NCBI GenBank assembly: GCA_023137125.1
Contig: JAGLPW010000107.1
Span: 1 to 60,517 of the forward strand
DNA: 60,517 nucleotides
Source: Candidatus Cloacimonadota bacterium
Lineage (GTDB): Bacteria; Cloacimonadota; Cloacimonadia; Cloacimonadales; TCS61
Reading direction: 5' to 3'
In this document: positions 2,279 through 28,719 of the stretch, piece after piece
How the letters are laid out: each line of letters begins with the position of its first letter
Numbering within the stretch: the first letter of the stretch is position 1
Position numbers and translations under genes: made by a program
The notes under the pieces: generated by a model
Database searches by the model: none
What the model saw: the letters and a program-made list of their open reading frames with translations, nothing else
Told to the model about the DNA's origin: nothing

Positions 2279-3208
2279 CTATAATCCAAAGATCGCTAAA
2301 ATAATACTGACGATTGCCAGCAGATTCATCCAAATCCAGAAGAACCGCATTGCTTGATCAATTCTTACTCTTGGACTTGTATTTCTAATTAAAGTTACTA
2401 ATAATACGACCAGAACTACTTTGAGTACTGACCAAAGAATATTTATTCCCTCAAAATTCATACCGGCAAAGAAGAGACCGACCACAAGAGCCGGAAGAAC
2501 AAATAGCATTATGTATTTTGCAAGATTTACTAAAGCATAAGTAGTTCCCGAAAATTCAATTGTGATTCCATCGCAGATCTCACCTTCTCCTTCTGCCATA
2601 TCGAAAGGCACTAACCCTAGTTTTGCCTGAATACACATCAATATTACAATAAAGCCTATGACCCCTGATACACTTCCAATAAAAGCACCATTGGCGGCTT
2701 GGAACGCAATGATCTCAGATAGTTTTATGCTCATTCCTGATTTTAAAATGATTGAGATCAACACGAGCAAGAAAGGAACTTCATAGCTCAATATCAGTTT
2801 CATTTCACGTGAGGCACCGACAGCTGCCAACGGATTTCCAGATGCTAAAGCACCGATCATATAACTCAGTGAAGGGATATTCAGCAGATAAATGATCACA
2901 ATAAGATCACCTACAAATCCTGTTTTAATTCCAAATAATGGAAGCAGAATGAACACTGCTGATATTACTGCACCAAAAAGTGCTAATATTGGAGCAACAA
3001 AGAATGTGAATTGAGAACCTTTCTTTGGGATCAAGGTCTCTTTGGTTAACAGCTTGATGAAATCATAAAGTGGTTGAAGAAGTGGAGGACCCTGACGGAA
3101 TTGGACTCTTGCAGTTATTTTCCTATCGAACCAGGAAAGAAAACCACCAACTATACCGGAGAATAATAATCCCGGAAAAATTAAAAAATAAAATATTTCT
3201 TTTCCCAT
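2279..3208 (-). CDS. NuoH/HycD/EchB-like integral membrane subunit
   Basis: 309 aa and polytopic. RVQFRQGPPLLQPLYDFIKL resembles the NuoH-family N-terminal signature. Confidence 0.85.
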   Translation of the reverse strand: MGKEIFYFLIFPGLLFSGIVGGFLSWFDRKITARVQFRQGPPLLQPLYDFIKLLTKETLIPKKGSQFTFFVAPILALFGAVISAVFILLPLFGIKTGFVGDLIVIIYLLNIPSLSYMIGALASGNPLAAVGASREMKLILSYEVPFLLVLISIILKSGMSIKLSEIIAFQAANGAFIGSVSGVIGFIVILMCIQAKLGLVPFDMAEGEGEICDGITIEFSGTTYALVNLAKYIMLFVLPALVVGLFFAGMNFEGINILWSVLKVVLVVLLVTLIRNTSPRVRIDQAMRFFWIWMNLLAIVSIILAIFGL

Positions 3209-3217
3209 TTTAATCCT

Positions 3218-3727
3218 TTATTCGTTCTTCATTAATTTATCCCAGATAAACTCTTTAACCAGGATATTATCATTTAATTTATGAATATTTTCTTCTTTAT
3301 TTTCATCGAAATCTACAATTGTAATTGCACCTTTGGGAGCTGTTTCCATACATTTTAAAGATTCTGTATTATCATTAAAATCACAAAGATCGCAAATAGA
3401 TTTTTTGGAAGTAAACACTTCGTTCATAATTGAACCAAACGGACATACGGCTACACAGGATTGACAACCGATACACAAATTTGTAGCTCGAACAATAAAG
3501 CCGTCATCATTCTTTTCCAGAGCTTCTTCCGGACAAACCAAAATGCAGGGGGAATCTTCGCATTGTCTGCAAGTAAACAATATCATTGCTTTTTCTACAA
3601 TATCTTTCATTCCGATATTATTTGGATGGAAATTGTAAATACATTCACCGAAATTGTAATTGCCATCTTTCGGATCTCGGAACTTTGCCAGATCAATTAA
3701 TATTTTTTTGCTCATTTTATCCGCCAA
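3218..3727 (-). CDS. 4Fe-4S dicluster ferredoxin-type subunit (HycB-like)
   Basis: CRQCEDSPCILVCP, CIGCQSCVAVCP and CDLC cysteine clusters. Confidence 0.75.
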   Translation of the reverse strand: MADKMSKKILIDLAKFRDPKDGNYNFGECIYNFHPNNIGMKDIVEKAMILFTCRQCEDSPCILVCPEEALEKNDDGFIVRATNLCIGCQSCVAVCPFGSIMNEVFTSKKSICDLCDFNDNTESLKCMETAPKGAITIVDFDENKEENIHKLNDNILVKEFIWDKLMKNE

Positions 3728-3733
3728 ATCATA

Positions 3734-4579
3734 TTATTTTTTCTCGAAATAACTGCGAAATTCTATCATTTCTGTGGTATCTTTTATCTCATCGTAAGTA
3801 AACACTGGGCCGTCTTTGCAAACATAGAGACCGTCCATTGCACAGTGACCGCATTTCCCTAATCCGCACGACATGTTCGTTTCCATTGAGAGATAAATAT
3901 TTTCTTCTTTTGCACCTAATTCCAACAGACGTTTTGCTCCGAACTTCATCATAATTGGTGGTCCACAAACAATAGCAACAGTCTCTATAAAATCTATTTC
4001 GATCTTATCTAACAGGACTGTAACTACACCTTCCGTTTCATTCCAATTTGCATCCGCTTCATCAACGCTTCTCAATAATTCTACATTTTTATGTTTCTTC
4101 AGTTCATCAAACCAATCTTTGTAAATAAAATCTGAAGGTGTTTTTGCACCGAAGCAAATATAGATTTTTTTAAATTTATCTTCTTCTTTTAATAAAGTGA
4201 GAATAAGACAACGCAGTGGAGCAAGGCCAACACCGCCTCCTAGGATCAGAATCTCTTTTCCATAGAACTTTTCTATTGGATAACCCTTCCCATAAGGTCC
4301 ACGGATACCAATAGTTTCGCCGCCTTTTAGCTCGTGCATTTTTCCGGTTACATATCCGGCATTCATTATTGTGAGTTCCATTTTATTTTTTACATACGGG
4401 GATGAAGAAGGAGTGTATGGCGCTTCACCAATCCCATCAAGTGTAACTTCCACAAACTGACCGGTTTTGAATTCAAATTCCTTTTCTGCACTAATAAAGA
4501 AAGTCTTAATAAGCGGAGTTTCAGTTACAATTTTATCTACTTTATATTTAATTGGTTTATAAATATTCTTTTCTGCCAT
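3734..4579 (-). CDS. FAD/NAD(P)-binding oxidoreductase with C-terminal 2Fe-2S (sulfhydrogenase gamma / AsrB / PyrK-like)
   Basis: Start taken at MAEKNIY (ATG 4577-4579, AGGGA upstream). GGGVGLAP nucleotide-binding motif and CGLGKCGHC...C cluster. Confidence 0.8.
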   Translation of the reverse strand: MAEKNIYKPIKYKVDKIVTETPLIKTFFISAEKEFEFKTGQFVEVTLDGIGEAPYTPSSSPYVKNKMELTIMNAGYVTGKMHELKGGETIGIRGPYGKGYPIEKFYGKEILILGGGVGLAPLRCLILTLLKEEDKFKKIYICFGAKTPSDFIYKDWFDELKKHKNVELLRSVDEADANWNETEGVVTVLLDKIEIDFIETVAIVCGPPIMMKFGAKRLLELGAKEENIYLSMETNMSCGLGKCGHCAMDGLYVCKDGPVFTYDEIKDTTEMIEFRSYFEKK

Positions 4580-4589
4580 TTTCCATCCC

Positions 4590-5588
4590 TTATTTACAAG
4601 CTTCAATTATTAATTCATTTTTATTGATCTTACCAATGCAGGCATCGATACATCTTCCACAACCGGTACAGGCAATTTCACCGAACATATCCGGTTTATG
4701 TACAAATTTACAAAGATAGCGATTTTTTAAGCGATTGTAAATCTTTTCCAGTGGATCTTCATCACCTGCTACCCGTTCAAATGCAGGATATTGGCAGGCA
4801 TCCCAATTCTTTACTTTCTCAAAATTTGCTTTATCTATTAATAAAAAACAATGGCAGGATGGACAAATAACAGCACAAGCTCCACAGGAGACACAATCTT
4901 TGGCATATTTCTTCCAAATCACTGAACCTTCCTTCAATAACATTTTTCTTGTTTCTTCTGTATCGGGAAGTTCCTTGTTCTGCAATTTTAATTCTTCAAT
5001 AATCTTTTGCCTTTTCTCCTCAATCCCTATGGGAATACCATCAATTTCTATAAGTTCAGTAGAAAACTCACTTAAGAATTTCTCACCTTTTTTTGTATGA
5101 ACTTGAAGAGTTATCTTATGATCAATTAGTGAGTAAGAAATATCGCAGTTCTTTTCCGGATACGGATTAACTCCATAGCTCGTACAGTGACAATTATTAT
5201 CTATTTCGTAACAATCTGATCCTATAAGAATTGTGTTATCTCTTTTTTCCTTATAATAAGTATCCAGAAAATCTTCATCCAAGAAAATCTTATCCAACAG
5301 ATTCAATGCACTTAAATCGCAAGAAGGTATTCCAACAATAACTCGTTTTTTATTTTTTTGTTCTTTCACGACATTTTCTTTTATAGGAAAGAAAAAAGCT
5401 TTCAATGGTGTAGTTGGCTTGGTTTTGTTAAAGGTGATCAAATCAACATTATCATCGGAAAGCAGTTCATAATCTGGAAAGTCTTGTCTTAGTAAAGGGG
5501 CAAAAACATTATATTTCGCAGAGACCAAGCTGAGAATTTTTACCCACTGTTTCAATGAAACAGAGTATGTTCTCATAAAATCTTCCAT
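4590..5588 (-). CDS. 4Fe-4S dicluster protein (sulfhydrogenase beta / AsrA-like)
   Basis: CVSCGACAVICPSCHC and CTGCGRCIDAC motifs. First gene of the operon, with an AT-rich leader upstream. Confidence 0.75.
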   Translation of the reverse strand: MEDFMRTYSVSLKQWVKILSLVSAKYNVFAPLLRQDFPDYELLSDDNVDLITFNKTKPTTPLKAFFFPIKENVVKEQKNKKRVIVGIPSCDLSALNLLDKIFLDEDFLDTYYKEKRDNTILIGSDCYEIDNNCHCTSYGVNPYPEKNCDISYSLIDHKITLQVHTKKGEKFLSEFSTELIEIDGIPIGIEEKRQKIIEELKLQNKELPDTEETRKMLLKEGSVIWKKYAKDCVSCGACAVICPSCHCFLLIDKANFEKVKNWDACQYPAFERVAGDEDPLEKIYNRLKNRYLCKFVHKPDMFGEIACTGCGRCIDACIGKINKNELIIEACK

Positions 5589-5885
5589 TCTTTTATTTAT
5601 ATTTTGCGAAGCCGCTTTAACACAACATCACATAAATATTCTAAATGAAACTGCAAATTCATTCGCAACAAAGACACATGTATTTAATCTTGTCAAATAC
5701 TTTTTCTTTGCTCCTTTCGTTTATTATATATTTATTATTAATACTATTAATATATAAAATAATCCATAAAATAAGAATAAAATTTATTTTTTATGTTTAA
5801 TGAAATTATCATTTACTTGAGTGTTAGAATGAAAAGTAATAAGAATTCAATTTGATAATTAATTAATTAATATGCATAATCAGTA

Positions 5886-5945
5886 CAAATAAAAAAGCCA
5901 TACGAATAATCGTACAGCTTAATAATAATGGGGTGGGTGATGGGA
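5886..5945 (-). other. Decayed copy of the tRNA-His 3' end followed (minus strand) by a hairpin and T-run
   Basis: 5929-5945 tggggtgggtgatggga matches 31882-31898 tggggtggatgatggga at 16/17 positions, and the adjacent 9 nt match 7/9. On the minus strand it is followed by gctgtacgattattcgtatggc and then TTTTTTATTT. Confidence 0.6.
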
Positions 5946-6156
5946 ACACAAAAGTTATGGATACTTGGGGACAACAATTTTATAAAGAAATCAAAAATAT
6001 ATAGACAATAATGAACGTCCTTAATCATGATTCGGAGTCAACTACTCTTCGTTATATAGGCTGGGATCAGGAGATCATCGACGATGCTATGGAGAGAATA
6101 GAGGAACTCTATAATCTGTAACATTCACATAAGCATTCTTCTCAGAATTATATATT

Positions 6157-7806
6157 TCATTTCAACAACAAACATTTCTTAACTACTTCAGTTTTACCAT
6201 TCACATTTAGTTTGTAAAGATAAACACCTGAACTGACAGAATTTCCAAAATCATCATCACCATTCCAGATAATTGAATGCTCTCCTGTAGGGATTTGGTC
6301 GTTTAAAAGTGATTTTATCTTCTGTCCTTTGATGTTGTATATACTTAGTTCAACTTCAGATTCTTCATGGATTGAGAAAGAAATTGTTGTAGTGGGATTG
6401 AAGGGATTGGGGTAATTAGTTAAAACATTAATTGTCGTAATTATTTCATCTTCAATAGAAGTAATATTATCTATCTTTGCTACAAATATATCAGAATTCC
6501 CACTACTGGTTAGATTAAAGGAACCAAAACTTGCTATTCCTCTATAATATCCTGTTACATACACATTTCCTTCGGCATCTGTGCTTATTGCAAATCCATT
6601 ATCATAAGTACTTCCCCCGGCACTTTCTGCCCAAATCCAATTACCGTTAGAATCCATCTTTGTAACAAAAATATCTCTCTCACCACTGCTGGTTAAATTA
6701 AAAGAGCCAAAACTTGCTGTGCCATGAAAATATCCTGACACGTAGACATTCTCATCAATGTCTGTGCTTATTCCAGATCCACCATCATACTCACTTCCCC
6801 CAGCATTTTTTGCCCAGATCCAATTTCCATTAGGATCCATCTTTGCTACAAAAATATCAGAGACCCCATTGCTGGTTAGATTATAAGAACCAAAATTTGC
6901 TAAATAATCAAAATATCCAGTTACATATACATTCCCATCAGCATCTGTGTTTATTGCTTTTCCTATATCCCCATAACTTCCCCCAGCACCTTCTACCCAG
7001 AGCCAGTTACCATTAGGATCCATCTTTGCTACAAAAATATCATGGTCCCCACTACTGGTTAAATTGAAAGAACCAAAACTTCCTGTTCCTCGGAAAGATC
7101 CAGTTACATATAAATTCCCATCAGCATCTGTGCTTATTCCAGATCCACCATCATACTCACTTCCCCCAGCATTTTTTGCCCAGAGCCAGTTACCATTAGG
7201 ATCCATCTTTGCTACAAATATATCATCATCTCCATTGCTGGGAAGATCAAAAGAACCAAAACTTGCTGTTCCTTCGAAAATTCCTGTTACATATACATTC
7301 CCATTAGAGTCTGTGCATATTGCAATTCCGTATTCTAAATCACTTCCCCCAGCACTTTCTGCCCAGAGCCAGTTACCATTAGGATCCATCTTTGCTACAA
7401 AAATATCATAGGCCCCATTGCTGGTTAGATTAAAAGAACCAAAATTTGCTGAATAATCAAAATACCCAGTTATATATACGTTTCCATCAACGTCTGTGCT
7501 TATTCCAAATCCACAATCATCAGAACTCCCACCGGCATTTTCTACCCAGAGCCAATTACCATTTGCATCCATCTTTGCTACAAAAATATCAGAGCTCCCA
7601 CTGCTGGTTAAGTTAAAAGAACCAAAACTTGCTGTACCAGAGAAATTTCCAGTTACATATACATTCCCATCACCATCTGTGCTTATTCCAGATCCACCAT
7701 CATAATTATTCCCTCCGGCACTTTCAGCCCATAACCATTCAGGTGCTTGGGCAAAAAGTAAAAATGAAAGTGTAATAAATAATAAAATTGAAAGTAGCCT
7801 TTTCAT
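6157..7806 (-). CDS. Secreted beta-propeller-repeat (SBBP-like) protein with T9SS C-terminal sorting domain
   Basis: Start at MKRLLS (GGAGGA RBS). Signal peptide, seven 61-aa NGNWLW..AGG..DGNVYVTG..SFGSFNLTS..DIFVAKMD repeats, and a C-terminal NYPNPFNPTTTISFSI...LLLK. Confidence 0.8.
   Translation of the reverse strand: MKRLLSILLFITLSFLLFAQAPEWLWAESAGGNNYDGGSGISTDGDGNVYVTGNFSGTASFGSFNLTSSGSSDIFVAKMDANGNWLWVENAGGSSDDCGFGISTDVDGNVYITGYFDYSANFGSFNLTSNGAYDIFVAKMDPNGNWLWAESAGGSDLEYGIAICTDSNGNVYVTGIFEGTASFGSFDLPSNGDDDIFVAKMDPNGNWLWAKNAGGSEYDGGSGISTDADGNLYVTGSFRGTGSFGSFNLTSSGDHDIFVAKMDPNGNWLWVEGAGGSYGDIGKAINTDADGNVYVTGYFDYLANFGSYNLTSNGVSDIFVAKMDPNGNWIWAKNAGGSEYDGGSGISTDIDENVYVSGYFHGTASFGSFNLTSSGERDIFVTKMDSNGNWIWAESAGGSTYDNGFAISTDAEGNVYVTGYYRGIASFGSFNLTSSGNSDIFVAKIDNITSIEDEIITTINVLTNYPNPFNPTTTISFSIHEESEVELSIYNIKGQKIKSLLNDQIPTGEHSIIWNGDDDFGNSVSSGVYLYKLNVNGKTEVVKKCLLLK
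6463..7746 (-). repeat. Seven tandem 183-bp coding repeats
   Basis: ccagttaccattaggatccatctttgctacaaa recurs at about 7003, 7186 and 7369, with variants at about 6637, 6820 and 7552. The period is 183 bp. Confidence 0.85.
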
Positions 7807-7828
7807 CTTTTCCTCCAAAATAAATAGC

Positions 7829-7878
7829 TGCTAATGTTTCGCATGTACTGTGAAATAATACTGACACGCTTGTTATGT
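7829..7878 (-). repeat. attC-like site, short type, minus orientation
   Basis: The minus strand reads acataacaagcgtgtcagtattatttcacagtacatgcgaaacattagca, about 80 percent identical to the 50-nt site at 28643-28692. Confidence 0.75.
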
Positions 7879-7899
7879 GAAATAAAACTCATCATTTGA

Positions 7900-8472
7900 T
7901 TATTTAACCTGGATAAGAAGATTTATTTCCAGACCACTAATTGTTTCTTCAAAATTAAGATCACTAAACATCGAAGCACTTAAGCCAATTTTCTTATAAA
8001 TCATTTTGTTTAGAGTTAGTTTTATTGGCAATGTTATGAATTTATCAAATGTAGACTTTGCCGGACCTGCTTTATCTTGGTTGGTCTTTCTTTGAATAAA
8101 ACCAACTCCAGCAAAAGCAGTAAGATTAAAATTTTTAAATGAATAGATTTCTCTACCATATTTCAAAGCAAAAACTAAAAAATCTTTTCCAGTAATATCA
8201 TCATTTATATCCAGTTCTAGTGCAATAGGATTATTATCAAATTTCTTGTAGTTGAATTCGACACATTGGTTTTTCCATTTAACAATTATTCCATAATTTG
8301 GTGATTTATAAAATATTTTATCATAATAATAACTTTTTGGATTGTCTTCAGTATATATTATTGAACGTCCAGCAGTAAATATAATTTGAAAATTACTTCT
8401 TTCTGCCCATAAACTTGATACCAATAATCCCATTATAATTATTATCAGAGTCTTTATTTTTTTCTTTTTCAT
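7900..8472 (-). CDS. Hypothetical secreted protein, possibly a small OM beta-barrel; cassette-borne
   Basis: Signal peptide MKKKKIKTLIIIIMGLLVSSLWA and alternating beta-strand-like pattern. Flanked by the R' half-site at 8509-8531 and the attC-like site at 7829-7878. Confidence 0.55.
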   Translation of the reverse strand: MKKKKIKTLIIIIMGLLVSSLWAERSNFQIIFTAGRSIIYTEDNPKSYYYDKIFYKSPNYGIIVKWKNQCVEFNYKKFDNNPIALELDINDDITGKDFLVFALKYGREIYSFKNFNLTAFAGVGFIQRKTNQDKAGPAKSTFDKFITLPIKLTLNKMIYKKIGLSASMFSDLNFEETISGLEINLLIQVK

Positions 8473-8508
8473 TGTTACTCCATTTTATCGTCTTCTAAGA
8501 TCTAATTC

Positions 8509-8531
8509 ACATAATATTTTACGTGTGCGTC
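8509..8531 (-). repeat. attC-like half-site (3' arm plus R' box only)
   Basis: The minus strand reads gacgcacacg-taaaat-ATTATGT. The following TTATGTGAA is the reverse complement of TTCACATAA at the 7872-7886 box of the next site. No matching 5' arm was found. Confidence 0.45.
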
Positions 8532-8615
8532 GTCCCAAAATATAACTAACAGACAATCCCCGAATCCCCCTCTTCAGGCCAAGAGAGGGATCTTTGGGAT
8601 AAAATATTCATTAGA

Positions 8616-10448
8616 TTACTTCAACATCAACATTTTCTTCATTATTGTTTCATCTTTAGTTGTTAATTTGTAGAAGAATATCCCTGATGACACACTCTTT
8701 TCGTTATTATCCTTGCCATTCCAGACTGTTTCATACGTTCCGGCCAGCTGTTCTCCTTTCACCAGAGTTTTCACGATCTGTCCTTTGATATTGTACACAA
8801 TGAGTTCAATCATACTATCATTTGGTAGAGAATAAGCAATTGTAGTAGATGGATTGAAAGGATTGGGATAATTGGAAGCAACTAAACTGGATGGTAATTC
8901 TGGTATATCTGGTGATGAGGTTCCATCTGAAATTGTTATTGGGTATACATATTGAACAAAATCACCTTCATCACTATAAACATAACTGATCATTCTAGCT
9001 TCTTCACCGGTTTGAATGCCGGATGTAACAGTGAATGATGTTTCATAATAATCACCAGCAATTACAATTTCTTCTTCAAAATAAGGTTCACCAAATTTTG
9101 TATAGTCTACTTCGTAATAGTATCCATTAATAGAATTTGAATAAAAACAATCATATTCTGACTCAAATGCCTTAAATTCACATTGAGAATAATCAATGGA
9201 GGGAAGCTGTCCGGAAATTGAAATATCATCATTATATAATAATATCTCAGGGTTTCCAATAATTGTAATATTCTCATCACGTTGTGGAGAATTCACAAAA
9301 AGCAATGGATCACCTAGTATATTAAATCTCTTGCTATTGATAATACCTGCTCCACTATTTATTTTAGCATCAAGAAGAGCAGCACCCAGATATTGATAAT
9401 CATTTATTATATTCTGGAAAAAAGCAAGAAATAGAACGCTATTACTACCACCACTTGTTGGTGCTCTGGCAGCAATAGAAGCAATTGCCCCACCATCCTC
9501 ATAGGTAAGGAATTGTTCTGCCATACAATCGAACTCCAAAGAACTGAAATCTCCAACACTACCTGAAGCTGCAGTGAATAGAGGAAGATGATCGGTATTT
9601 TGTAATAATTGAAGCTGGGTAGAAACCCTGAAATAGTCCTCATCACCTAGTACATCTTCGTTTCCATGACCAATAAAATGCCATATCAATTGCCCGTCAT
9701 TTACTTTATCAATAACGTCTTGTGCTGCTTCTGGTTTATTCCCATTTGTATTCATTTCATATTCTATACCCAATACACGATCTATCCAAGCTGCATCAGA
9801 TAATGATTCTGCTAATTCTTGTGATCTGGCTGTATGATTCAAACCACTTGAGTAAGATAATCCCTCTAAAGTTCCTCCTTTATGCTCATCATCTGCAACT
9901 ATGAGCATTTTATTTCGCCACCAATCAAGTGTTGGACTTGTGATATACTGAATATTTCTATTGATGATTAGCTCTAATTGTTCTATATTCTGAGCAGGAA
10001 ATCTACCGATAGGGATATCGGGATAGTAATCTGTATCCAGCATGACAAATTCATCATCTGTATACCCAATTACAACTATTCTGTTTTTATCATTGGGAGT
10101 ATTCCATTCTTCAGTTCCACTTCCCATTATAAGAACAGAACTATCCATCCAGATAGATGGGTCATCGAAAAATTCAATGAGATAATCTAGAATCGCTTCC
10201 GGATATGCTACTCCTCCGCTCATTTGATCAAATATGTCTTGTTGATCTACAACAGAACGTACGATTTGAAATTCATTCCAATAGAAATCTGCTAATAGAT
10301 TTGCCTGAGTTAAGAATTCTTCTGGTGCGATAATAATGTGCTGCCCATCACGAGCTCTTTCAATGTGTTTTTGTTGTTTTGAATTTATCGCCTTCAATCC
10401 TATTAATACTAATATCATCATTCCGATTAGTGTAATACGCTTTGCCAT
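8616..10448 (-). CDS. Peptidase C25 (gingipain)-like secreted protein with T9SS C-terminal domain
   Basis: HFIGHGNEDVLG ... LPLFTAASGSVGDF ... NILGDP resembles the gingipain catalytic region. C-terminal NYPNPFNPSTTIAYSL...MLMLK. Confidence 0.65.
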   Translation of the reverse strand: MAKRITLIGMMILVLIGLKAINSKQQKHIERARDGQHIIIAPEEFLTQANLLADFYWNEFQIVRSVVDQQDIFDQMSGGVAYPEAILDYLIEFFDDPSIWMDSSVLIMGSGTEEWNTPNDKNRIVVIGYTDDEFVMLDTDYYPDIPIGRFPAQNIEQLELIINRNIQYITSPTLDWWRNKMLIVADDEHKGGTLEGLSYSSGLNHTARSQELAESLSDAAWIDRVLGIEYEMNTNGNKPEAAQDVIDKVNDGQLIWHFIGHGNEDVLGDEDYFRVSTQLQLLQNTDHLPLFTAASGSVGDFSSLEFDCMAEQFLTYEDGGAIASIAARAPTSGGSNSVLFLAFFQNIINDYQYLGAALLDAKINSGAGIINSKRFNILGDPLLFVNSPQRDENITIIGNPEILLYNDDISISGQLPSIDYSQCEFKAFESEYDCFYSNSINGYYYEVDYTKFGEPYFEEEIVIAGDYYETSFTVTSGIQTGEEARMISYVYSDEGDFVQYVYPITISDGTSSPDIPELPSSLVASNYPNPFNPSTTIAYSLPNDSMIELIVYNIKGQIVKTLVKGEQLAGTYETVWNGKDNNEKSVSSGIFFYKLTTKDETIMKKMLMLK

Positions 10449-10565
10449 AAAAAACCACCTTTATTAATTTTTTTGCAAAGATAATGAAGCTATCAATATA
10501 GTTTAGCAGCTCCCTTAATAATTTATTGTAAAAATTAAAAATATTAGCAATTTCATTTGATGTAC

Positions 10566-12050
10566 TTATTCTAATAATAGCATTTTTTTGTGCAAGCTTT
10601 TTTTACCGGTGATGAGTGTATATAAATAAACACCTGAACTTACTCGTTTATTATTATAATCTCTTCCATCCCAAATAACTGAATGTTGTCCAACTGATAA
10701 TTGATCGTTAAGAAGTGTTATGATTCTTTGTCCTTTGATGTTGGAAATGGATAATTCTACTTTACTTTCTTCTGGAATTGAGAAAGAGATTGTTGTTGTT
10801 GGGTTGAATGGATTTGGATAAGCTGATTTCAGATCAGTACAATCTATTGTTTCTACAAAATCATTATTTAATGCTGTATAATTCCCAGTTGTAAAATGCC
10901 ACATTCCGCTCCAAAGTGATTCATTTTCAGATGTAGATTTTATTCTCCACCAATACTCTGTATCAGGAAGCAATTCCGGAGAAAAAGTGAATGTATTATT
11001 CGAAGTATAAAGCCCATCACCAATGTAAATGAGATTATCATTTGAAATTCCCAAATAAAGCTCATACATAGCACCGGATTCTGCACCTTGCCAAGATAAC
11101 TCACTATTGTAAGCAACATTCTCCGCATGTCTTGTTGGAAAAGGATAACATGCTACATTTAAGTTTGCTGTAAAAGGATAATTAAGAGTACAGAATCCTC
11201 GACTCTCAAGAATTGGAATATGAACTTCCAATGCTTCTTGGGATATTGGATTAGTAAATATCCCAAGATATTGGATATACAAATAATCATCCAAGCCTAG
11301 ATTGGTGTTCTCCACTAACGGAAAAATATCTGTAATTTGGTTATCCTCTAGATGCAAATTATTTAAGTTCGTTAAATTAGAAATTGCTGAGATGTCGGTG
11401 ATCTGGTTGCTCTCTAGATGCAAAATATTCAAACTCAGCATACTGGAAATCGCTGAGATGTCTATGACCTGATTGTTGTCTAATCTAAATAATGTTAAAT
11501 TTGTAAGTCCGGAAAGTGCAGATATATCACTGATTTGATTATTGTACAAACTCAAAATCGTTAAATATGTAAGTCCGGAAAGTGAGATTATGTCACTGAT
11601 TTGATTATTGTGTAAACTCAAATATGTTAAATTTGTCAGTTCGGAAAGTGCGGTTAAATCACTGATCTGATTACCCAATAATTCCAAACGTGTTAAATTT
11701 ATCAGACCAGTAAGTGCATTTATTTCACTGATCTGATTACTCCACAAATCCAAACGCGTTAAATTCGATAGCCCGGACAGAACAGATATGTCACTGATCT
11801 GATTAATATGTAAATCCAACCATATTAAATTCGTTAAGTACTGAGCACCTTCGATAGATATAATATTTGCATTGCTAGCATTCAGAGTCCCGGTTAAACC
11901 ATTCAAATCGGCAATGGTAGGTTCATACTCTGGGGGTTGGCCAAGCGCTTCATTAATTTCTTCTCGGAAATTATCATCCGGTATAATTTGAGCAAAAAGC
12001 CCAAATCCCATAATACTAATAATAACTATTAAAAATAATTTATTACTCAT
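10566..12050 (-). CDS. Leucine-rich-repeat (internalin-like) secreted protein with T9SS C-terminal domain
   Basis: Start at MSNKLF (GGAGGA RBS). About eight 22-aa LTNLTxLxLxxNQISDISxLSG repeats and a C-terminal AYPNPFNPTTTISFSI...MLLLE. Confidence 0.8.
   Translation of the reverse strand: MSNKLFLIVIISIMGFGLFAQIIPDDNFREEINEALGQPPEYEPTIADLNGLTGTLNASNANIISIEGAQYLTNLIWLDLHINQISDISVLSGLSNLTRLDLWSNQISEINALTGLINLTRLELLGNQISDLTALSELTNLTYLSLHNNQISDIISLSGLTYLTILSLYNNQISDISALSGLTNLTLFRLDNNQVIDISAISSMLSLNILHLESNQITDISAISNLTNLNNLHLEDNQITDIFPLVENTNLGLDDYLYIQYLGIFTNPISQEALEVHIPILESRGFCTLNYPFTANLNVACYPFPTRHAENVAYNSELSWQGAESGAMYELYLGISNDNLIYIGDGLYTSNNTFTFSPELLPDTEYWWRIKSTSENESLWSGMWHFTTGNYTALNNDFVETIDCTDLKSAYPNPFNPTTTISFSIPEESKVELSISNIKGQRIITLLNDQLSVGQHSVIWDGRDYNNKRVSSGVYLYTLITGKKSLHKKMLLLE
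11310..11837 (-). repeat. 66-bp periodic LRR coding repeats
   Basis: Recurrent gtcactgatttgattattgt / tcactgatctgatta units with a 66-bp period. Confidence 0.7.
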
Positions 12051-12080
12051 TCTTCCTCCAAACTCATTATTCAATTATAC

Positions 12081-12139
12081 AGATAATGGTTGGCTGCTGC
12101 TCCGCTCTTCTTGCTTGGCTGTGGAGCTGTGTGTTAGTG
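12081..12139 (-). repeat. attC-like site, divergent short variant, minus orientation
   Basis: The minus strand reads CACTAAC-aca-cagctcc...ggagcagcag-ccaacc-ATTATCT. It has the same AAC...ccaaNc-ATTA frame as the plus-strand sites and starts 10 nt after the stop of the 12150-14306 gene. Confidence 0.5.
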
Positions 12140-12149
12140 GCATCTTCCC

Positions 12150-14306
12150 TCATTTTAATAACAAACATTTATTCACTGCTTCGATTTTTCCGTTAATACT
12201 CAGCTTATAGAAATAGATTCCTGATGAGACTTTCTTTCCTGTGAAGTCTTCCCCATTCCAAACTATTGAATGCTCTCCTGCTGATATTTGATTGCTTAAA
12301 AGTGATTTTATCTTCTGTCCCTTGATGTTGTAAATGGATAATTCTACTTTACTTTCTTCAAGAATTGAGAAAGAAATTGTTGTTGTTGGATTGAAAGGAT
12401 TGGGGTGATTTGATAGAATAAATTCTACTATTTGAATTTCATTATCATCTATTTCATTTAATTGATCAAAATAAAATGCTCCCATGTCTGCGATTGTCCC
12501 ATCAGGATCCAAAGGTGATGTAGGATCTCCAGCATCAATACAGGGTGAATTTTCGGTAAGATGATAATCTCCATTTGCTGCATCTACAAATAATGGATTT
12601 GAATCTATATTACCATCTCCTTCCCAACCTCCTTGAATATCGGAATAGATTACTGTAATTGTGTCTAATGATGAACTATAAATTTCTTGCGGGATATTGT
12701 TCCAAAGAATACAATTTACCAAATTTGGATGAGAATCTAAGATACTATAAATTCCACCACCAGTATCATTAGCCGAATTTCCATTGAATGTAACATTGTA
12801 TAAATTTGGATAAGAGTGAAGACAAGTTATTCCTCCACCCATACTTGATTGATTATTGATTATTGACACTTTTGTCAACGTTGGATTAGAATATATAAAG
12901 TATAGTCCACCACCTGAATTTGCAGTATTTTGAAAGAACTTAATATTTAACAAATTCGGTGAAGAATGAGCACAGAATATTCCGCCACCACGACTTGGAG
13001 AAGAAGTAGCATTTCCATTTTGAATAGTCATATTTTTAATGGAAAGATTATTGTCATCCCAACAATATAAGATATTATTTAATCCTTCACTATCAATAAT
13101 TGTATTTTCCATTTCCTCACCTTCTAATGAAATATAGCTTCTGCAATTAATAGGAAATCTTTCTTCTGTTTGAGAAAGTGAATAGATACCATTTTCTAAA
13201 AATATTGTATGCGGATTTAAACTATCTGCAATAACTTTTGCTAACGCATATTCAATATTTAGTAATGGGTCATCGAGAGTAATTCCACTATTCCCATTTG
13301 AACCAAATGAACTAACGTACAAATCACTATTCACCTGATCAATTTTACTATTTAAGATATCAAAAGAAAATTTATCAATTGGATAAGCAAAATATGAATT
13401 TGGTTGCAATACTGTAAAAGTATCAACAATTACATTTATTGTTTGATAATGAATTGTATGTAAATCATTATCCACATTAGCATGATTTAAATAAATATTG
13501 CATCTATTATTAGTATTAAAAAATATATTGGAATCATCAATAAAAATTCCACCTCCTCTTTTGGCAGAATTATTATTGATTGTAACATTAGATAAATTAA
13601 TTTCAGAACCATAATAGAAAATCCCACCGCCTTCTATACCTGCTTGATTATATGATATGTTAACATTCTCTAGTGATACATTTGATTCTGATATAGCAAT
13701 TCCACCACCACTTCCACCGTAAGTTGCATAAGCCGTGTTATTATTTATTCCTACATTCAATAATTGAATATCTGATTCTAAAATAAGTAACCCAGCACCA
13801 TAAAAAAATGAATTATTATTATAAATTAAGGAATTCGTTAATTTTGCATTCGAATTGTAGAAAAAGATTCCTCCTGCATCACCTTCAGAGACATTATCAT
13901 GAATTATTAAATGCTGCAAATATGGATTCGAATTATTAATACAGTTTATCCCAGCACCTATGGAATTTGGCCAAGATCCTTGAGCAAATCCATTAACGAT
14001 AGAAAATCCATATAGTACTGCAGTAGAGTCTTCACCGCTTTCAAAAATCACAACAATCCCATCAATAATTGTCTGAGAAATAAAGCTAGTATCTTGTGTT
14101 GTTAAGAATAATGATGCTATGGTTATGTCTTTGCCATTGTAATTAATATTCTCTGTATAAGTTCCTGGTTGAACTAAAACAGTATCTGCATCTACAGAGA
14201 TATCAATACCAGCTTGTATAGTTGGTTGATCTGCAGGGATATTAATTATGGTTGAATAAAGATTAGAGATAACAAAAACAAATAGTACTATTATTACTTT
14301 TTTCAT
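12150..14306 (-). CDS. Right-handed parallel beta-helix (PbH1/pectate-lyase-fold) secreted protein with T9SS C-terminal domain
   Basis: Repeated GGGI(F/Y)...N(S/N)...I.NN units, a signal peptide, and a C-terminal NHPNPFNPTTTISFSI...CLLLK. Confidence 0.8.
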   Translation of the reverse strand: MKKVIIVLFVFVISNLYSTIINIPADQPTIQAGIDISVDADTVLVQPGTYTENINYNGKDITIASLFLTTQDTSFISQTIIDGIVVIFESGEDSTAVLYGFSIVNGFAQGSWPNSIGAGINCINNSNPYLQHLIIHDNVSEGDAGGIFFYNSNAKLTNSLIYNNNSFFYGAGLLILESDIQLLNVGINNNTAYATYGGSGGGIAISESNVSLENVNISYNQAGIEGGGIFYYGSEINLSNVTINNNSAKRGGGIFIDDSNIFFNTNNRCNIYLNHANVDNDLHTIHYQTINVIVDTFTVLQPNSYFAYPIDKFSFDILNSKIDQVNSDLYVSSFGSNGNSGITLDDPLLNIEYALAKVIADSLNPHTIFLENGIYSLSQTEERFPINCRSYISLEGEEMENTIIDSEGLNNILYCWDDNNLSIKNMTIQNGNATSSPSRGGGIFCAHSSPNLLNIKFFQNTANSGGGLYFIYSNPTLTKVSIINNQSSMGGGITCLHSYPNLYNVTFNGNSANDTGGGIYSILDSHPNLVNCILWNNIPQEIYSSSLDTITVIYSDIQGGWEGDGNIDSNPLFVDAANGDYHLTENSPCIDAGDPTSPLDPDGTIADMGAFYFDQLNEIDDNEIQIVEFILSNHPNPFNPTTTISFSILEESKVELSIYNIKGQKIKSLLSNQISAGEHSIVWNGEDFTGKKVSSGIYFYKLSINGKIEAVNKCLLLK

Positions 14307-16693: not shown

Positions 16694-17012
16694 GATAATA
16701 TCCTTGCACTTTATTCTTTCATCACGAATTTTTGTTATAATAAATATATATAAAAAATAATAAATAATTTTCAACTTGAAACGGTAAAAAAAATGATTTG
16801 ATGGAATTATGTGTCAAGAATAATAGTATTTTATAGTGTGAAATAAAATAGTCAGAATTCTCCAAATTTTTAATTACTTTTTTGAGAAATCCAACTAGGA
16901 TTTTAAAACCATATTTAAGAGAATGATAATAGCAAAATATGTTGATTTTCTTTTTTTTATAATAAAATATTCGCTAAAAAAGTGACGGATTTTATGTCAA
17001 TCTCATAATATT

Positions 17013-17102
17013 TTTCACAACGTTTTTCCTGAAAAATAGCTAAAAATAACGGCGTAAGCTATTATGCCATAATAGCTTACGCCGATGTTATGGGGTGGAT
17101 AA
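17013..17102 (-). other. Second decayed tRNA-His 3'-end copy with perfect palindrome and TTTCACAACG motif
   Basis: 17089-17100 tatggggtggat is identical to 31880-31891. 17051-17083 ggcgtaagctattatgccataatagcttacgcc is a perfect palindrome followed on the minus strand by gTTATTTTTag. tttcacaacg at 17013-17022 also occurs twice at 31792-31813. Confidence 0.5.
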
Positions 17103-17648
17103 CAAGATGAATTTAGATAAAATGTTTACCAAAAGACTCAATGAACATTTTAATCGAGAAGACATTATGAAGACATACAATTTGGCAAAATATATGTTTT
17201 TGGAAGATCCAAATAGTGATCTGTACAAAATCTTTAAAAAGATATTCCCAGATGCTGAATAAGCTTCTTCGAGGGCAATGTTTCTACGGTGTTTTTAGAT
17301 AGCTCAAATGCGAGATAATTATTTTTATGTGAAATTACATTGATCGACAGTAAAATGAAATTTTACGTGGGTAAAAATAGTAGTTATTCTTGCCCCTATT
17401 TTTATAACTTTATGTCTCGATAATCGCGACTTAGTTAGTAATGAGAGCTGTTAGATTATTAACGTGTATTCCTGCCTCTTACCTAATCGTAATCAAATAA
17501 TATTGGAGAAGTTTGTTCTAATCTTTTCGTTTAAAGAAAATTAATATTTATACATTATTTTAATTGCTGTTCAATTTTATCCAATAGTGAAATCCTCTGA
17601 TGTATTTCATCACTATATTTTATGGGGTCCCTGAACACTTCGTTTTCT

Positions 17649-25528: not shown

Positions 25529-25633
25529 ATGGCGTCATAACTCCCAATTTAAAAGTTATGACGCCATAAAATCTCGTAACTATAGGTTGGTTATGCGCCA
25601 CAAAAAAATAGACGCAGCGTACATATGTTACAG
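25529..25633 (+). other. Conserved cassette-array leader A (hairpin, conserved blocks and GTTACAG box)
   Basis: About 85 percent identical to 59611-59714 in three blocks: atggcgYcataactcccaatttaaaagttatgacg, gtaactataggttggttatgcgc and cgcagcgtRcatatgttacagg. Confidence 0.65.
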
Positions 25634-25994
25634 GCAGTTGGGAACATTAAGTCCGGTGTAGAAGTAACTTCGGGTTGAAACTGATTTTCTAAAACTGGAC
25701 AATTTTTGGAAGCCGACAAAAGTCGGAAAATAAGTTTGTATAACGAAAAGGATAACGGAATTTGCGGTGGAAGTTCAGGATAAGCAAATTTTTTGCCAAT
25801 TCGCCGGAAACTACGACCTGTACGTTCAGTGAAAGTTCCAGCTCAAAGTTTTGAAGTTAATTAGAAGATATAAATCGTGGGTTACCTTTACAGGAATTCA
25901 GAGGTGCAATTGTCACAAAATTTGCAAGTGCTCCTCCACTGTTGTTTGGGCAAATTCCATTCCATTTTCTTATTTGTCCGGTGGAAAGAACTGC

Positions 25995-26122
25995 CTGTAA
26001 CAGGCGTATCTGCGGTAGTGCTGGTTTGTTTGTTTTGGTTTGAATCTAACGATTCAAACTTTGGTTAGTTTGCTTAACGCTGGGATCGTAACCGATCCCG
26101 CCGCATACGCAAAACATTATAC
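25995..26122 (+). repeat. attC-like site 0 (128 nt)
   Basis: CTGTAAC-agg-cgtatCTgcgg ... tttgaatctaacgattcaaa ... gggatcgtaaccgatccc-gccgcatacg-caaaac-ATTATAC. Confidence 0.8.
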
Positions 26123-26138
26123 GTTTCAGGGAGTGTAA

Positions 26139-27248
26139 GTGAAAATAAAATTATTGTTAATAATAGTTTTAAGTCTTTATATAGGATTTTTATATTGTTC
26201 TCTTGAAATTACTGAAATCACTGAAACATACAATAATGGAGCAACAAAAAGAGAAGTATTTTATTTAGGTAATAAAAACACGGAAACTATTTATAGAAAA
26301 AATGGGTCAATACATTTCGTAAAGAGGTATATGGGAGGATATTCAAAAATTGGAACATGGATAGAGTACAATAAAGATGAGCGTGCAGTTAAAGCAGGGA
26401 ATTTTATTGTTGGTGAAAAAGAAGATTCTTTTTTAAAAGATATAAAAGATGGATATTACAATGAGTTTTTCGATAAAGATAAACTCTCTTTAACTACTTT
26501 TTTCTTTGAAAATAAAATTAATGGTGTATGGTTAGAATACTATTCAAATGGAAATTTAAAGTGTAAAGGTATTGTTATAGATGGATACTTTGAAGAATTG
26601 GAACATTATAATGAAGATGGCGTAAAACTTAATGTTGAATTAGAAAATGGAAACTATTCTCACACCATATATTTCAATGATATTGGTAAATTTGAATATT
26701 ATTTTTCACGTAAACTAGATTCTGAAAGTTCAATAATTGAAAGTATGGATTTTGGTTATTATGAAAATGGACATTTACGTAGCGTCGAACAAAAAAATGA
26801 ACATACAGAAATTGATCTTACTTTCTGGGATAATGCAAATATTAAACAACTATATAATACCAATTTGAAGTCTGGTATTTCAAACTTAATAAAGTTTCAT
26901 GAAAATGGAAGAGTAAAAGTAAGTGGTTTTTCTCGAGACAATTCTAATATTGGTAAAATATATGAATACTTTGAATCAGGCAAGATAAAGCAAATTGTTA
27001 AATTTCCTAACGAATCAAAAGACCCCTTTGATCTGGAAGAAATTTCAGAATATTACGAAAATGGTAATCTTAAGTATAAACTTTGTTATGTTGAAAAAAA
27101 AGTTTACAAATCTTTTTCATATTATGCTAAAAATGGTGAATTGATTTTTGAATCATCTGAGCAAGATGATATTGAAAAACTAGTTAGAGTATGGTCTGGT
27201 GGAGCTACATACACAATTGAATTTGACGAAACAAAAGTCGGAAAATGA
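26139..27248 (+). CDS. Secreted MORN-variant / YwqK-like repeat protein (cassette 1)
   Basis: GTG start with AGGGAG RBS and a signal peptide. Repeats such as INGVWLEYYSNGNLKCKG, ISEYYENGNLKYK and GKIYEYFESGKIKQ. Confidence 0.7.
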   Translation: MKIKLLLIIVLSLYIGFLYCSLEITEITETYNNGATKREVFYLGNKNTETIYRKNGSIHFVKRYMGGYSKIGTWIEYNKDERAVKAGNFIVGEKEDSFLKDIKDGYYNEFFDKDKLSLTTFFFENKINGVWLEYYSNGNLKCKGIVIDGYFEELEHYNEDGVKLNVELENGNYSHTIYFNDIGKFEYYFSRKLDSESSIIESMDFGYYENGHLRSVEQKNEHTEIDLTFWDNANIKQLYNTNLKSGISNLIKFHENGRVKVSGFSRDNSNIGKIYEYFESGKIKQIVKFPNESKDPFDLEEISEYYENGNLKYKLCYVEKKVYKSFSYYAKNGELIFESSEQDDIEKLVRVWSGGATYTIEFDETKVGK

Positions 27249-27251
27249 AAC

Positions 27252-27377
27252 GTATAACAAGCGTATCTGCGGGTGGGTTCATTATTCTTTCCAGCTTGAA
27301 TCTTACGATTCAAACCTTGTTTTATTTGTTTCGGGGCGTGATCGTTCCGATCCCGCCGCACACGCAAAACATTAGCA
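27252..27377 (+). repeat. attC-like site 1 (126 nt)
   Basis: GTATAAC-aa-gcgtatctgcgg ... ttgaatcttacgattcaa ... gatcgttccgatc-ccgccgcacacg-caaaac-ATTAGCA. Confidence 0.8.
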
Positions 27378-27463
27378 ACGGCGGGTAACATAAGTAGAAA
27401 CATAATAGAAGTTAGATATATGTGATTCATAAAAAAAGATTATTAAACAATTGGAGGGAAAAA

Positions 27464-28633
27464 ATGAAACGTTTTTTTGTAGTAATTACATTTTTTTTAA
27501 TATCTTTAAATGTATTCTCACAAATTCCAGATAATATTATTAGAGATGATGAAATTTTGGTAGAACAATTCGTAGATGATTGGCAGGCTGAGAATTGGAT
27601 ATACGATGAACATCATATTTACGAGTATAATGATGAAAATTTGCTGTCAGAATATACAATAATGAAATTCATAGATGATGAATGGCACAATAGTAAATTA
27701 CGGACTTATACCTACGATCCAGATGGATTATTAACAGAAATGATAGTTTTCAATACTTCTTATGGAGAATGGATTAATTACCAAAAATATACTTATGCTT
27801 ATTTCGAAAACAATCTGTTAAGTGAATATATTTACAGTATGTGGGAAAATGATTTATGGGAAGCAAGATATCGACACCAGTATATTTATAATGATAATCA
27901 ATTATTAATAAAGCATTATAGGGATGAATGGACAGGCTCAGGATGGCATGCAGAATATGGTAATTGGTTTTCATATAATTCGAATGAAGAATTAATTGAG
28001 GATTTAGCAAAAAGGTGGATTGGGTACTGGACAAATAATAGTCGTCATGAATATAGTTACAATTCTCATGGGGATTGTGAGACTTATCTTTTTTTCATTT
28101 GGGATGATGAATTCTATGAATGGTGGTTAATGAATGATTATTTCTATGAATACGAATATGAAAATAACATAAAGATTACAAAAACTACTTCATATTATTC
28201 AAATTATGATAATAAAGAAGTTTACTCTTATAATATCAATGGTAATCTTATAGAAACAATACAACAGGATTGGTCTTCAGGAACATGGATAAATGACGCA
28301 CGTATTTCTTCAATTTATGAAACTACACATGTTTATGAATATGAAATTGTAAATCAAAAGAATACAATCAATGTTTTTCCAAATCCATTCAATCCATTAA
28401 CAACAATAGAGTTTTCTATCTACAACGATTCAAAAGTTGAACTTACAATATACAACATAAAAGGCCAAAAAATTAAAACCTTAGCTCAAAATGAATTTAC
28501 AAAAGGTTTACATTCAATTATTTGGAATGGTGATGATGAATTGAATAATCCTGTTAGTTCAGGAACCTATTTCTACAAATTAAATATAAATGGTAAAACT
28601 GAAGCAGTCAAGAAGTGTTTGCTTTTAAAATGA
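27464..28633 (+). CDS. Hypothetical secreted W/Y/E-rich protein with T9SS C-terminal domain (cassette 2)
   Basis: Start taken at MKRFFVV (GGAGGG RBS); the listed ORF starts at GTG 27422. C-terminal VFPNPFNPLTTIEFSI...CLLLK. Confidence 0.7.
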   Translation: MKRFFVVITFFLISLNVFSQIPDNIIRDDEILVEQFVDDWQAENWIYDEHHIYEYNDENLLSEYTIMKFIDDEWHNSKLRTYTYDPDGLLTEMIVFNTSYGEWINYQKYTYAYFENNLLSEYIYSMWENDLWEARYRHQYIYNDNQLLIKHYRDEWTGSGWHAEYGNWFSYNSNEELIEDLAKRWIGYWTNNSRHEYSYNSHGDCETYLFFIWDDEFYEWWLMNDYFYEYEYENNIKITKTTSYYSNYDNKEVYSYNINGNLIETIQQDWSSGTWINDARISSIYETTHVYEYEIVNQKNTINVFPNPFNPLTTIEFSIYNDSKVELTIYNIKGQKIKTLAQNEFTKGLHSIIWNGDDELNNPVSSGTYFYKLNINGKTEAVKKCLLLK

Positions 28634-28642
28634 TAGAGATGT

Positions 28643-28692: not shown

Positions 28693-28719
28693 GAAATAGT
28701 GTAATAATCAGGAGATATT

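Follow-up and report, generated by a model that had tools for sequence, protein, structure and literature searches.

Probable remnants of integron-type cassette arrays in a chromosomal T9SS cargo cluster of a Candidatus Cloacimonadota bacterium

We analyzed a stretch of 60,517 nt from a Candidatus Cloacimonadota bacterium (GCA_023137125.1, JAGLPW010000107.1), referred to here as the window and providing the numbering of all positions, focusing on a minus-strand cluster of genes for cargo of the type IX secretion system (T9SS) and on the attC-like recombination sites that lie between them. Our analysis indicates that this cluster (6157-14306) is probably a chromosomal T9SS cargo cluster that harbors fixed fragments of integron-type cassette arrays. 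One complete cassette, encoding a predicted outer-membrane β-barrel of 190 residues, and one or two cargo genes that are bounded on one side only derive from cassettes. The three minus-strand sites are eroded, and the units that they delimit would now be immobile relics resembling a cluster of attC sites lacking integrases (CALIN) and not a live array, since the pairing of the L' arm or half of the length has been lost in every one of these sites, and neither attI nor a recombinase is found on this strand.

The sites belong to a family that can be recognized by a 15-nt 5' box, TAACAAGCGTGTCAG, which is present in seven copies in the window against 0.83 expected, six of them on the plus strand (25998, 27255, 28646, 29494, 31636, and 60457) and one on the minus strand. 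The plus-strand copies head imperfect palindromes of 50-130 nt, located a few bases past a stop codon and 20-45 nt ahead of the next start. When genomes were scanned for this box (one genome per species, query TAACAARCGTRTCWGCGG, with complete sites extracted from the matched loci), it was found mainly in metagenome-assembled genomes (MAGs) of Candidatus Cloacimonadota (Tenebribacter, Celaenobacter, Cloacimonas, and others), together with scattered chance matches; fetched loci outside the window carry L-numbers in what follows (L077, L112, L124, L125, L126, and so on). We described subfamily 1 by a covariance model, R1, built on an alignment of 30 complete sites from other genomes, none of them from the window, and with a structure that was set by hand, as RNAalifold gave the L stem alone. 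A second model, R2, describes subfamily 2 and was trained on nine sites, all from other genomes. Over 76 loci, R1 detects 119 sites at E<0.01, usually in co-oriented runs with a spacing of ~0.7-2.7 kb, and an Rfam scan of the window returned no family matching the sites, only four tRNAs.

The layout is the same throughout the phylum: an imperfect palindrome of 50-140 nt with the order R''(xxxTAAC) - L'' ... L' - AAAC - R'(A|TTAxxx), where the bar marks the crossover. In subfamily 1, the R box pairs TAAC with ATTA, the L box comprises 10 pairs with a single bulged base, and further inside lie two hairpins, in which compensatory changes have altered 18 alignment cells on both sides, a count reached by none of 500 shuffles. 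The bulged base lies on the L' arm, as can be seen in the plus-strand site 28643-28692, where L'' reads GCGTGTCAGT and L' reads ACTG-C-ACACGC, the bulge is visible in the fold, and folding is canonical (-10.6 kcal/mol, z -3.0). We note that R' is ATTA, and not GTTA, in 29 of the 30 training sites and in every site of the window, so that the sites do not carry the GTT core triplet by which integrons are recognized (integron criteria were taken throughout from Cury et al. 2016 and Ghaly et al. 2022). Spurious open reading frames (ORFs) of 50-66 aa are called across the long attC sites at L112 11747-11905, L074 4645-4845, and L094 3268-3456.

The relationship between neighboring sites is what identifies the family as attC-type. 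We measured the identical run, starting at TTA, between the bases that follow the crossover of one site and the reverse complement of the bases that precede TAAC of the next. This run is at least 7 nt long in 37 of the 49 neighboring pairs, and 9-12 nt long in many of them, compared to ~2.6% of pairs drawn from different loci and ~1% of comparisons between a site's own two flanks; runs of at least 9 occur in only ~1% of the non-neighbor control pairs. Such complementarity is the hallmark of units that form circles and are integrated again, with site-specific recombination acting on one end of the site, which is the behavior of integron cassettes.

The minus-strand unit with both ends in place is a complete cassette of 680 nt (8514-7835), comprising the 190-aa gene (7900-8472) and its own attC up to the crossover. 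This attC, a short (50 nt) member of subfamily 1 at 7829-7878 with TAAC at 7875-7872 and the crossover at A7835|T7834, reads ACATAACAAGCGTGTCAG-tattatttca-CAGTACATGCGAAACATTAGCA from 7878 to 7829 on the minus strand. The initial annotation of this DNA considered it a homologue of the site at 28643-28692(+), which reads TGCTAACAAGCGTGTCAG-tttagtttca-CTGCACACGCAGAACATTAGCA, and R1 bears this out, with scores of 31.7 bits (E 6.3e-7) and 37.1 bits, respectively. The minus-strand copy carries two substitutions in the L' arm and forms no canonical hairpin (z -0.3), and thus does not fold in the manner expected of a functional attC. The orthologous cassette of L124, whose protein is 74% identical, ends in a long-form site that shares this R'' flank (AATTCACATAAC-AAACGTGTCAGCGGGT), indicating that the copy in the window has lost its center through an internal deletion.

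At the other end of the cassette lies a 3' half-site of subfamily 1 (L' - spacer - R') at 8509-8531, with the minus-strand sequence ACGCACACGTAAAAT|ATTATGT and the crossover at A8515|T8514; this is the sole minus-strand match of the regular expression for the 3' box, in agreement with the earlier suggestion that a half-site precedes the 190-aa gene. When reverse-complemented, the flank that precedes TAAC in 7878-7829 equals the 9 nt past the A, TTATGTGAA (8514-8506), a run of 9, and the gene therefore passes the circular-cassette test, as had also been proposed. The predicted junctions of the unit are ...CATGCGAAACA|TTATGTGAA... for the excision circle and ...CACACGTAAAATA|TTAGCAGCTAT... for the emptied site. 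The full-length R1 match at 8509-8616(-) is weak (12.2 bits, E 0.41) and family-like in its 3' 22 nt only. We considered 8539-8615 as the 5' half of an attC and rejected this assignment, as the segment is the terminator hairpin of the neighboring C25 gene itself and is also present in relatives that lack attC.

The gene in question encodes a 610-aa C25 peptidase that is T9SS cargo (8616-10448, minus strand; Peptidase_C25 2e-61 plus tail), and its native 3' region on the same strand (8539-8615) contains a terminator-like hairpin at ~8592-8563. This hairpin, GATCCCTCTCTT...AAGAGGGGGAT, can be aligned, together with ~25 nt past it, to the 3' flanks of C25 orthologues without attC; 8509-8531 is thus a half-site joined to the terminator of a resident gene. 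That C25 is resident follows from its orthologues (65-86% identity) at seven metagenome loci, which have no site of either subfamily and whose neighbors differ except for a shared T9SS tail, including a different gene after C25. Such clusters therefore also vary without attC.

The 190-aa protein itself has no Pfam match and no T9SS tail. An AlphaFold model built from four sequences (pLDDT 73) comprises a signal peptide and eight strands, with Ail, OmpA-TM, NspA, and OmpX as the top Foldseek matches (E ~1e-6), and the product is therefore predicted to be a small eight-stranded outer-membrane β-barrel and not T9SS cargo. Only three homologues were found among 5.8 billion proteins, all of them array-associated: one in L125 (54% identity) between full-length sites of 95 and 108 bits, with a run of 11; the L124 protein, preceded by a 119-bit site and with end sequences near-identical to those of the window unit; and one in L120 (58% identity) in a third context, where a recombinase remnant precedes it and a subfamily-2-like site comes next. 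A search for the unit at other array positions had been suggested earlier, and the unit does recur there, with full-length sites on either side in L125 and with the same ends in L124. As it both obeys the flank rule and occupies other array positions, the 190-aa gene (8514-7835) is a genuine mobile gene cassette.

Four proteins of the cluster (553, 610, 502, and 718 aa) carry the Por_Secre_tail domain (PF18962) by which we define T9SS cargo, with 28-32 bits against a cutoff of 27 bits. The 553-aa SBBP cargo unit (6157-7834, minus strand; gene 6157-7818, SBBP plus Por_Secre_tail) adjoins the barrel cassette and begins exactly at its crossover with TTAGCAGCTAT. The SBBP gene start, TTAGCAGC, is the same as in a paralogue (61% identical) just past the end of the window, which is a complete cassette (L112 11921-13573, start TTAGCAGCAACT) that ends in a short site, and DNA homology between the two extends from the attC 3' end to the stop codon. 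The attC of the SBBP unit in the window is missing, as neither R1 nor R2 has a match after the gene. Within the AT-rich non-coding region 5589-6156, a 36-aa ORF at 6011-6121(+), MNVLNHDSESTTLRYIGWDQEIIDDAMERIEELYNL, is oriented toward the end of the SBBP gene and reads like the C-terminus of a tyrosine recombinase, with no Pfam match.

The remaining minus-strand site is 12081-12139, located 10 nt past the stop of the 718-aa gene, with TAAC at 12136-12133 and an inferred crossover at A12087|T12086. It had been described as a more divergent site, and it in fact represents a second subfamily: R1 matches it weakly (11.7 bits, E 0.59), while for R2 it is the top match in the window (44.7 bits, E 3.7e-11). 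Its 5' half is identical over 32/32 positions to a site in L077, and its close relatives (L077, L010, L091, L038, L066, L053, L046, L031, and L120) define subfamily 2, with the consensus xCTAACAcACAGCTCCAC...GTGG-C-AGCTGCCAAACATTA and the same R boxes, AAAC spacer, and bulged-C arm as subfamily 1. We classify 12081-12139 as an eroded, attC-like member, as 3 of 13 modeled pairs are broken, the fold (z ~0) is not that of a functional attC, and the L' arm, compared by eye, differs from the consensus of the subfamily in several substitutions and additional bases.

The gene that this site follows (718 aa, 12150-14306, minus strand) encodes T9SS cargo of the PMP-repeat/β-helix type (Por_Secre_tail plus Chlam_PMP); a partner for the R'' flank that would mark its upstream cassette boundary was sought and not found. 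Past the crossover starts the 502-aa leucine-rich-repeat (LRR) cargo gene (10566-12074, minus strand; LRR plus tail by Pfam), and between it and the C25 gene (10449-10565) neither R1 nor R2 has a match. No attC partner was found for the LRR, SBBP, or 718-aa units, so that none of the three obeys the flank rule and each misses one boundary. By eye, the stretch at ~10480-10515(-) between the LRR and C25 genes, GAGCTGCTAAAC-tatattgatagcttc-ATTATCT, resembles a very short decayed site, which neither model supports; the ATTATCT of this GAGCTGCTAAAC...TTCATTATCT stretch equals R' of 12081-12139.

The plus strand of the same window shows such arrays in a more complete form. Array 1 comprises sites at 25995-26122, 27252-27377, 28643-28692, 29491-29614, and 31633-31771 (within 25995-31771), five sites with R1 scores of 122, 108, 94, 57, and 37 bits, and R1 also finds the site that is cut by the window end. 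All four of the plus-strand cassettes tested in the window pass the flank test (runs of 12, 8, 9, and 9), and one (27422-28633) is a T9SS cargo gene by Pfam. The array is headed by a block at 25529-25630(+), and a second block at 59605-59712(+) heads a second array (59605-60517, plus strand) with a 233-aa first cassette and a site from 60454. Both blocks consist of a hairpin ATGGCG.CATAACT...AGTTATGACG, then CTATAGGTTGGTTATG, then ...CATATG|TTA, which in array 1 reads ...CATATG|TTACAGGCAG, with crossovers at G25627|T25628 and before T59709. In both, G|TTA leads into the reverse complement of the first site's flank (runs of 12 and 9, respectively), which identifies the blocks as attI sites, and 25529-25630 also aligns with the block that follows a full-length recombinase in L126. 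The second array continues past the window in L112, with two T9SS cargo cassettes and sites of 130, 115, and 32 bits.

Among 50 sampled cassettes, seven match the T9SS-tail profile, or four of 47 when three that were used in training the profile are left out; these counts have no genomic background rate, and we claim no enrichment. The proposed link between an integron-like system and the T9SS secretome holds in that cargo genes with this tail do occur as cassettes, and fails for the one complete cassette of the cluster, as the barrel has no such tail.

As for the enzyme, no recombinase was found in the window by Pfam searches of the neighbors of the cluster and arrays, and tblastn with the recombinase remnants described below gave no match there. 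Upstream of the attI blocks of the window, we see only traces of a recombinase gene, such as ...AGCCCTTCAGATTAA... at ~59573. At other loci, a co-oriented ORF of 54-100 aa ahead of the attI block corresponds to the C-terminus of a tyrosine recombinase (motif ...HSLRHSFATHLLE.GEDLRYIQKILGHK..KTTEIYTH...KIKSPLD), with unrelated genes directly upstream; such remnants precede the arrays of L094, L074, L014, L098, L029, L069, and L020. That these short ORFs are gene-calling artifacts at contig ends was considered and rejected, as internal loci likewise have unrelated genes directly upstream. A database search with a 59-aa recombinase C-terminus gave 1922 matches. The best 120 of these span numerous phyla of bacteria and archaea, often lie on short contigs, and are without exception 54-104 aa in length; decayed recombinase stubs from this clade are very common.

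An all-against-library search yielded full-length relatives (353-386 aa). Among them, P0128 (365 aa) in L126 is co-oriented with and ahead of an attI block and four sites that score 73-118 bits (runs of 11, 7, 13, and 11), so that L126 is a complete unit of recombinase, attI, and sites; two more are located on 1.5-kb contigs that end just past the gene. P0128 contains PF13495 (SAM-like, SAM_4) and PF00589. Among NCBIfam profiles it best matches TIGR02249 (integron integrase), scoring 223 bits where the cutoff is 265, in two stretches that skip profile positions ~180-237, and its best match in the PDB is VchIntIA (2a3v), where 20 residues of P0128 (268-288) stand opposite 63 residues of VchIntIA (184-247); XerA, in turn, aligns with P0128 from end to end. 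The C-terminal SPLD-type tail aligns to VchIntIA. An AlphaFold model (17 sequences, pLDDT 84) has no inserted helix, and contains a compact α/β domain in the first 68 residues. This N-terminal domain is conserved (FPY..IK.I.GR.W...K.W.IP) and matches PF07443 (HARP) in 7 of 17 members, with a best E of 1.7e-7. The L126 recombinase is Xer-like, with a HARP-like N-terminus and without the additional domain that characterizes integron integrases.

One of the features that define IntI is the additional domain, which is described as necessary for integron-mediated recombination (10.1101/2022.02.06.479319) and held to be required for the recombination of folded attC sites (10.1101/2022.02.06.479319; PMC4792948). 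The L126 recombinase shares the SAM_4 and catalytic domains and the SPLD-type tail with IntI (TIGR02249, VchIntIA 2a3v), and differs from it in having 20 residues at the place of the 63-residue additional/I2 domain, as well as the extra N-terminus. The initial annotation spoke of an integron-like system, which is borne out for the attC-type sites, but has to be restricted in view of a recombinase without this domain and a minus strand with neither attI nor a recombinase. We infer from gene order that this enzyme acts on the sites; the system works like an integron, yet we do not class it as one.

The recombinase that moves these cassettes is most likely the L126-type enzyme of 365 aa, as judged from gene order. 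We considered, as the most serious rival, that the sites are served by a canonical IntI from another part of these genomes, in which case the HARP/Xer-like gene would be a bystander or belong to a different element. The genomes are fragmented MAGs in which no scan for IntI was made, and TIGR02249 is, after all, the best NCBIfam match of P0128, below its cutoff, with an SPLD tail that aligns to VchIntIA. However, the HARP/Xer-like gene or its 3' remnant directly precedes the attI block, in the same orientation, at no fewer than 10 loci, and also in Dehalobacter, and tblastn with IntI1 gave only these remnants in all loci fetched, such that we consider a canonical IntI unlikely, though still deserving of some weight.

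The Dehalobacter locus (L117 6001-7000, CP157399.1), from a Firmicute, has the same layout: a 64-aa remnant is followed by attI (GAC|GTTATACGCC), a canonical G|TTA attC, and then five co-oriented unrelated genes. The site obeys the flank rule (TTATACGCC), has GTTA as R', and, on a by-eye reading, carries the bulge on the L'' arm. In the arrays at large, the recombinase is co-oriented with the cassettes, and a genome carries several arrays anchored by attI, most of which retain only a decayed recombinase. We tentatively suggest, as a possibility that we rate somewhat below an even chance, that these arrays represent a separate lineage of integron-type gene-capture platforms, in which a co-oriented, HARP-domain, Xer-like enzyme without I2, with an attI of its own and a crossover at A|TTA in Cloacimonadota (G|TTA in the Dehalobacter relative), would in Cloacimonadota traffic T9SS cargo and surface proteins.

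Returning to the minus-strand cluster, its present arrangement probably arose when an array fragment, made up of an attC tail followed by the barrel and SBBP cassettes, became attached past the C25 terminator at an imprecise junction that was not site-specific, with the 718-aa gene and its subfamily-2 site being a second cassette-derived piece. The L126-type recombinase would have made and moved the cassettes, leaving decayed 3' remnants at the attI of most arrays sampled, including those of the window. The earlier proposal that cassette recombination assembled at least part of the secreted-protein cluster can thus be retained for the barrel unit and the start of the SBBP unit, and has to be given up for the C25 gene, which is resident; nor is there a site between LRR and C25 or past SBBP.

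A number of observations weigh against this account and against the enzyme assigned to it. Both boundaries are present in one unit only, the 718-aa, LRR, and SBBP genes having at most one each, and the left junction retains ~22 nt of the upstream attC, which is not expected of a clean single-cassette insertion. There is no attI block on the minus strand, and no recombinase domain in the neighboring genes by Pfam, so that cassette activity in this cluster is a matter of historical inference. All samples with the exact 190-aa gene (L121-L123) have the same arrangement, with no presence/absence polymorphism; we found no empty-site allele without the cassette, as contigs of the same strain all carry it and the relatives have different neighbors. 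The strand asymmetry of the family is weak, with the bottom strand being more stable in 22 of 30 sites and by ~1 kcal/mol. Finally, the link between the L126-type enzyme and the sites rests on conserved adjacency, and a canonical IntI could exist elsewhere in the fragmented genomes.

An alternative history in which the barrel cassette was inserted alone, by the recombinase acting at a non-specific secondary site downstream of C25 (an activity known for IntI1) with SBBP already present, would account for its exact ends and would follow an accepted route to isolated cassettes (PMC4889954). A secondary-site event would, however, not have brought the attC L' and spacer (ACGCACACGTAAAAT) found at the left junction. 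The SBBP start (TTAGCAGC), shared with the cassette paralogue and with homology that begins inside the attC 3' end, likewise points to arrival as a cassette, and the relatives carry a different gene after C25. We therefore regard insertion of the barrel cassette on its own as improbable. Still less likely by a clear margin is the strong form of the earlier proposal, namely that the entire minus-strand cluster is a live array in which every T9SS cargo gene is a mobile cassette: three co-oriented sites do lie within 4.3 kb, and T9SS cargo genes do occur as cassettes in the plus-strand arrays, L112, and L126, but sites are missing between LRR and C25 and past SBBP, the strand has no attI, the existing sites are eroded, and the C25 orthologues lack sites of both subfamilies. 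That the similarities are due to chance, or to terminators or repetitive extragenic palindromic (REP)-type repeats without recombination, can practically be dismissed, since although the sites are palindromic, directly follow stop codons, and include a terminator in the 8509-8616 match, E-values of 6e-7 and 4e-11 from models trained elsewhere refute this for 7829-7878 and 12081-12139, the flank rule holds in 37/49 pairs, and the barrel cassette occurs in different arrays.

The reading of the cluster as a resident chromosomal locus with fixed cassette pieces has a close parallel among known systems. CALIN and isolated cassettes have been proposed to originate from the break-up of arrays or from secondary-site insertion (PMC4889954, Cury et al. 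2016). The likeness consists of co-oriented attC-type sites and cassettes without an integrase nearby, and the sites detected here by R1 and R2 (12081-12139, and 7829-7878 together with the half-site) indeed amount to at least two attC within a few kb, with no integrase in the vicinity, as in a CALIN. They differ in that the sites are eroded, that one half-site is fused to a resident terminator, and that the crossover is of the A|TTA lineage. A CALIN-like relic is an ordinary fate for cassettes, and it is the lineage of the system that is unusual.

With regard to the arrays as a whole, a close comparison is with sedentary chromosomal integrons, of which that of Vibrio cholerae, with sequence-conserved attC repeats of ~125 nt, is an example. 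As in these systems, long attC sites of ~125 nt are alike within and between related genomes, separate small unrelated genes, start from an attI head, and obey the boundary rule; here, however, there are several attI arrays per genome with a co-oriented and mostly decayed recombinase, the core is ATTA and not GTTR, and the bulge is on the L' arm. Integrons of reverse orientation have been mentioned from Spirochaetota (10.1101/2022.02.06.479319). The arrays described here resemble these Treponema-type reverse integrons in the unusual orientation of the recombinase relative to the cassettes. Treponema integrases, as canonical IntI, would carry the additional domain, which the L126 recombinase lacks.

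In Xer modules, such as pdif modules and integrative mobile elements exploiting Xer (IMEX; for example, CTX phage), a Xer-like enzyme without I2 acts, or has been proposed to act, on mobile DNA, as we propose here. XerCD is said to lack adaptations such as the additional domain for single-stranded substrates, and CTX uses a folded single strand (PMC4792948). The present system has no alternating 28-bp dif-like sites, and instead long (50-140 nt) bulged hairpins that are all co-oriented with the genes, a dedicated recombinase, and attI. In the literature, we found no publication that links integrons or attC to Cloacimonadota, T9SS cargo, or HARP-type recombinases; our coverage is incomplete, and novelty is accordingly provisional.

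Taking the cluster as a resident locus with fixed cassette pieces, a variable T9SS cluster has gained surface and secreted proteins through the movement of cassettes (an OmpX-like barrel, SBBP cargo, and probably β-helix cargo), and the locus illustrates how cassettes can become fixed in a chromosome through the loss of a half-site or of stem pairing. If the L126-type enzyme does act on these sites, cassette capture through hairpin sites would not need the I2 domain. Were this the case, integron-like systems could also be sought in phyla reported to be without complete integrons, such as Firmicutes (PMC4889954), and an origin of integrons from Xer-like ancestors would become testable. Such platforms would also be invisible to IntI-based detection, could explain part of the puzzle of CALIN without integrases, and could represent a stage of integron evolution either before or after the acquisition of I2.

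Further observations concern the surroundings of these arrays. Within the window, the first unit past attI in array 1, 25628-25994(+), spans ~370 nt with matching flanks and contains no ORF of ≥80 aa, and the last array-1 site, 31633-31771(+), retains the 5' two-thirds, with sequence of no relation to the family in place of its 3' arm; next comes a tRNA cluster, His-Arg-Met-Met (31882-32333, minus strand). The non-coding region 16775-17648, an 870-nt gap upstream of the minus-strand cluster, contains a perfect 16-bp hairpin (GGCGTAAGCTATTATG/CATAATAGCTTACGCC) at 17045-17095(-) and a small plus-strand ORF. Outside the window, a 1204-aa C25/T9SS gene (2708-6322) lies beside the recombinase in L126, which also has a 711-aa T9SS-tail cassette at 9975-12110, and L119 (5027-6315) contains a 322-aa full-length integrase followed 5 nt on by a 104-aa C-terminal duplicate, with an integrase and IS91-type transposase pair 3 kb further and no array at that locus.

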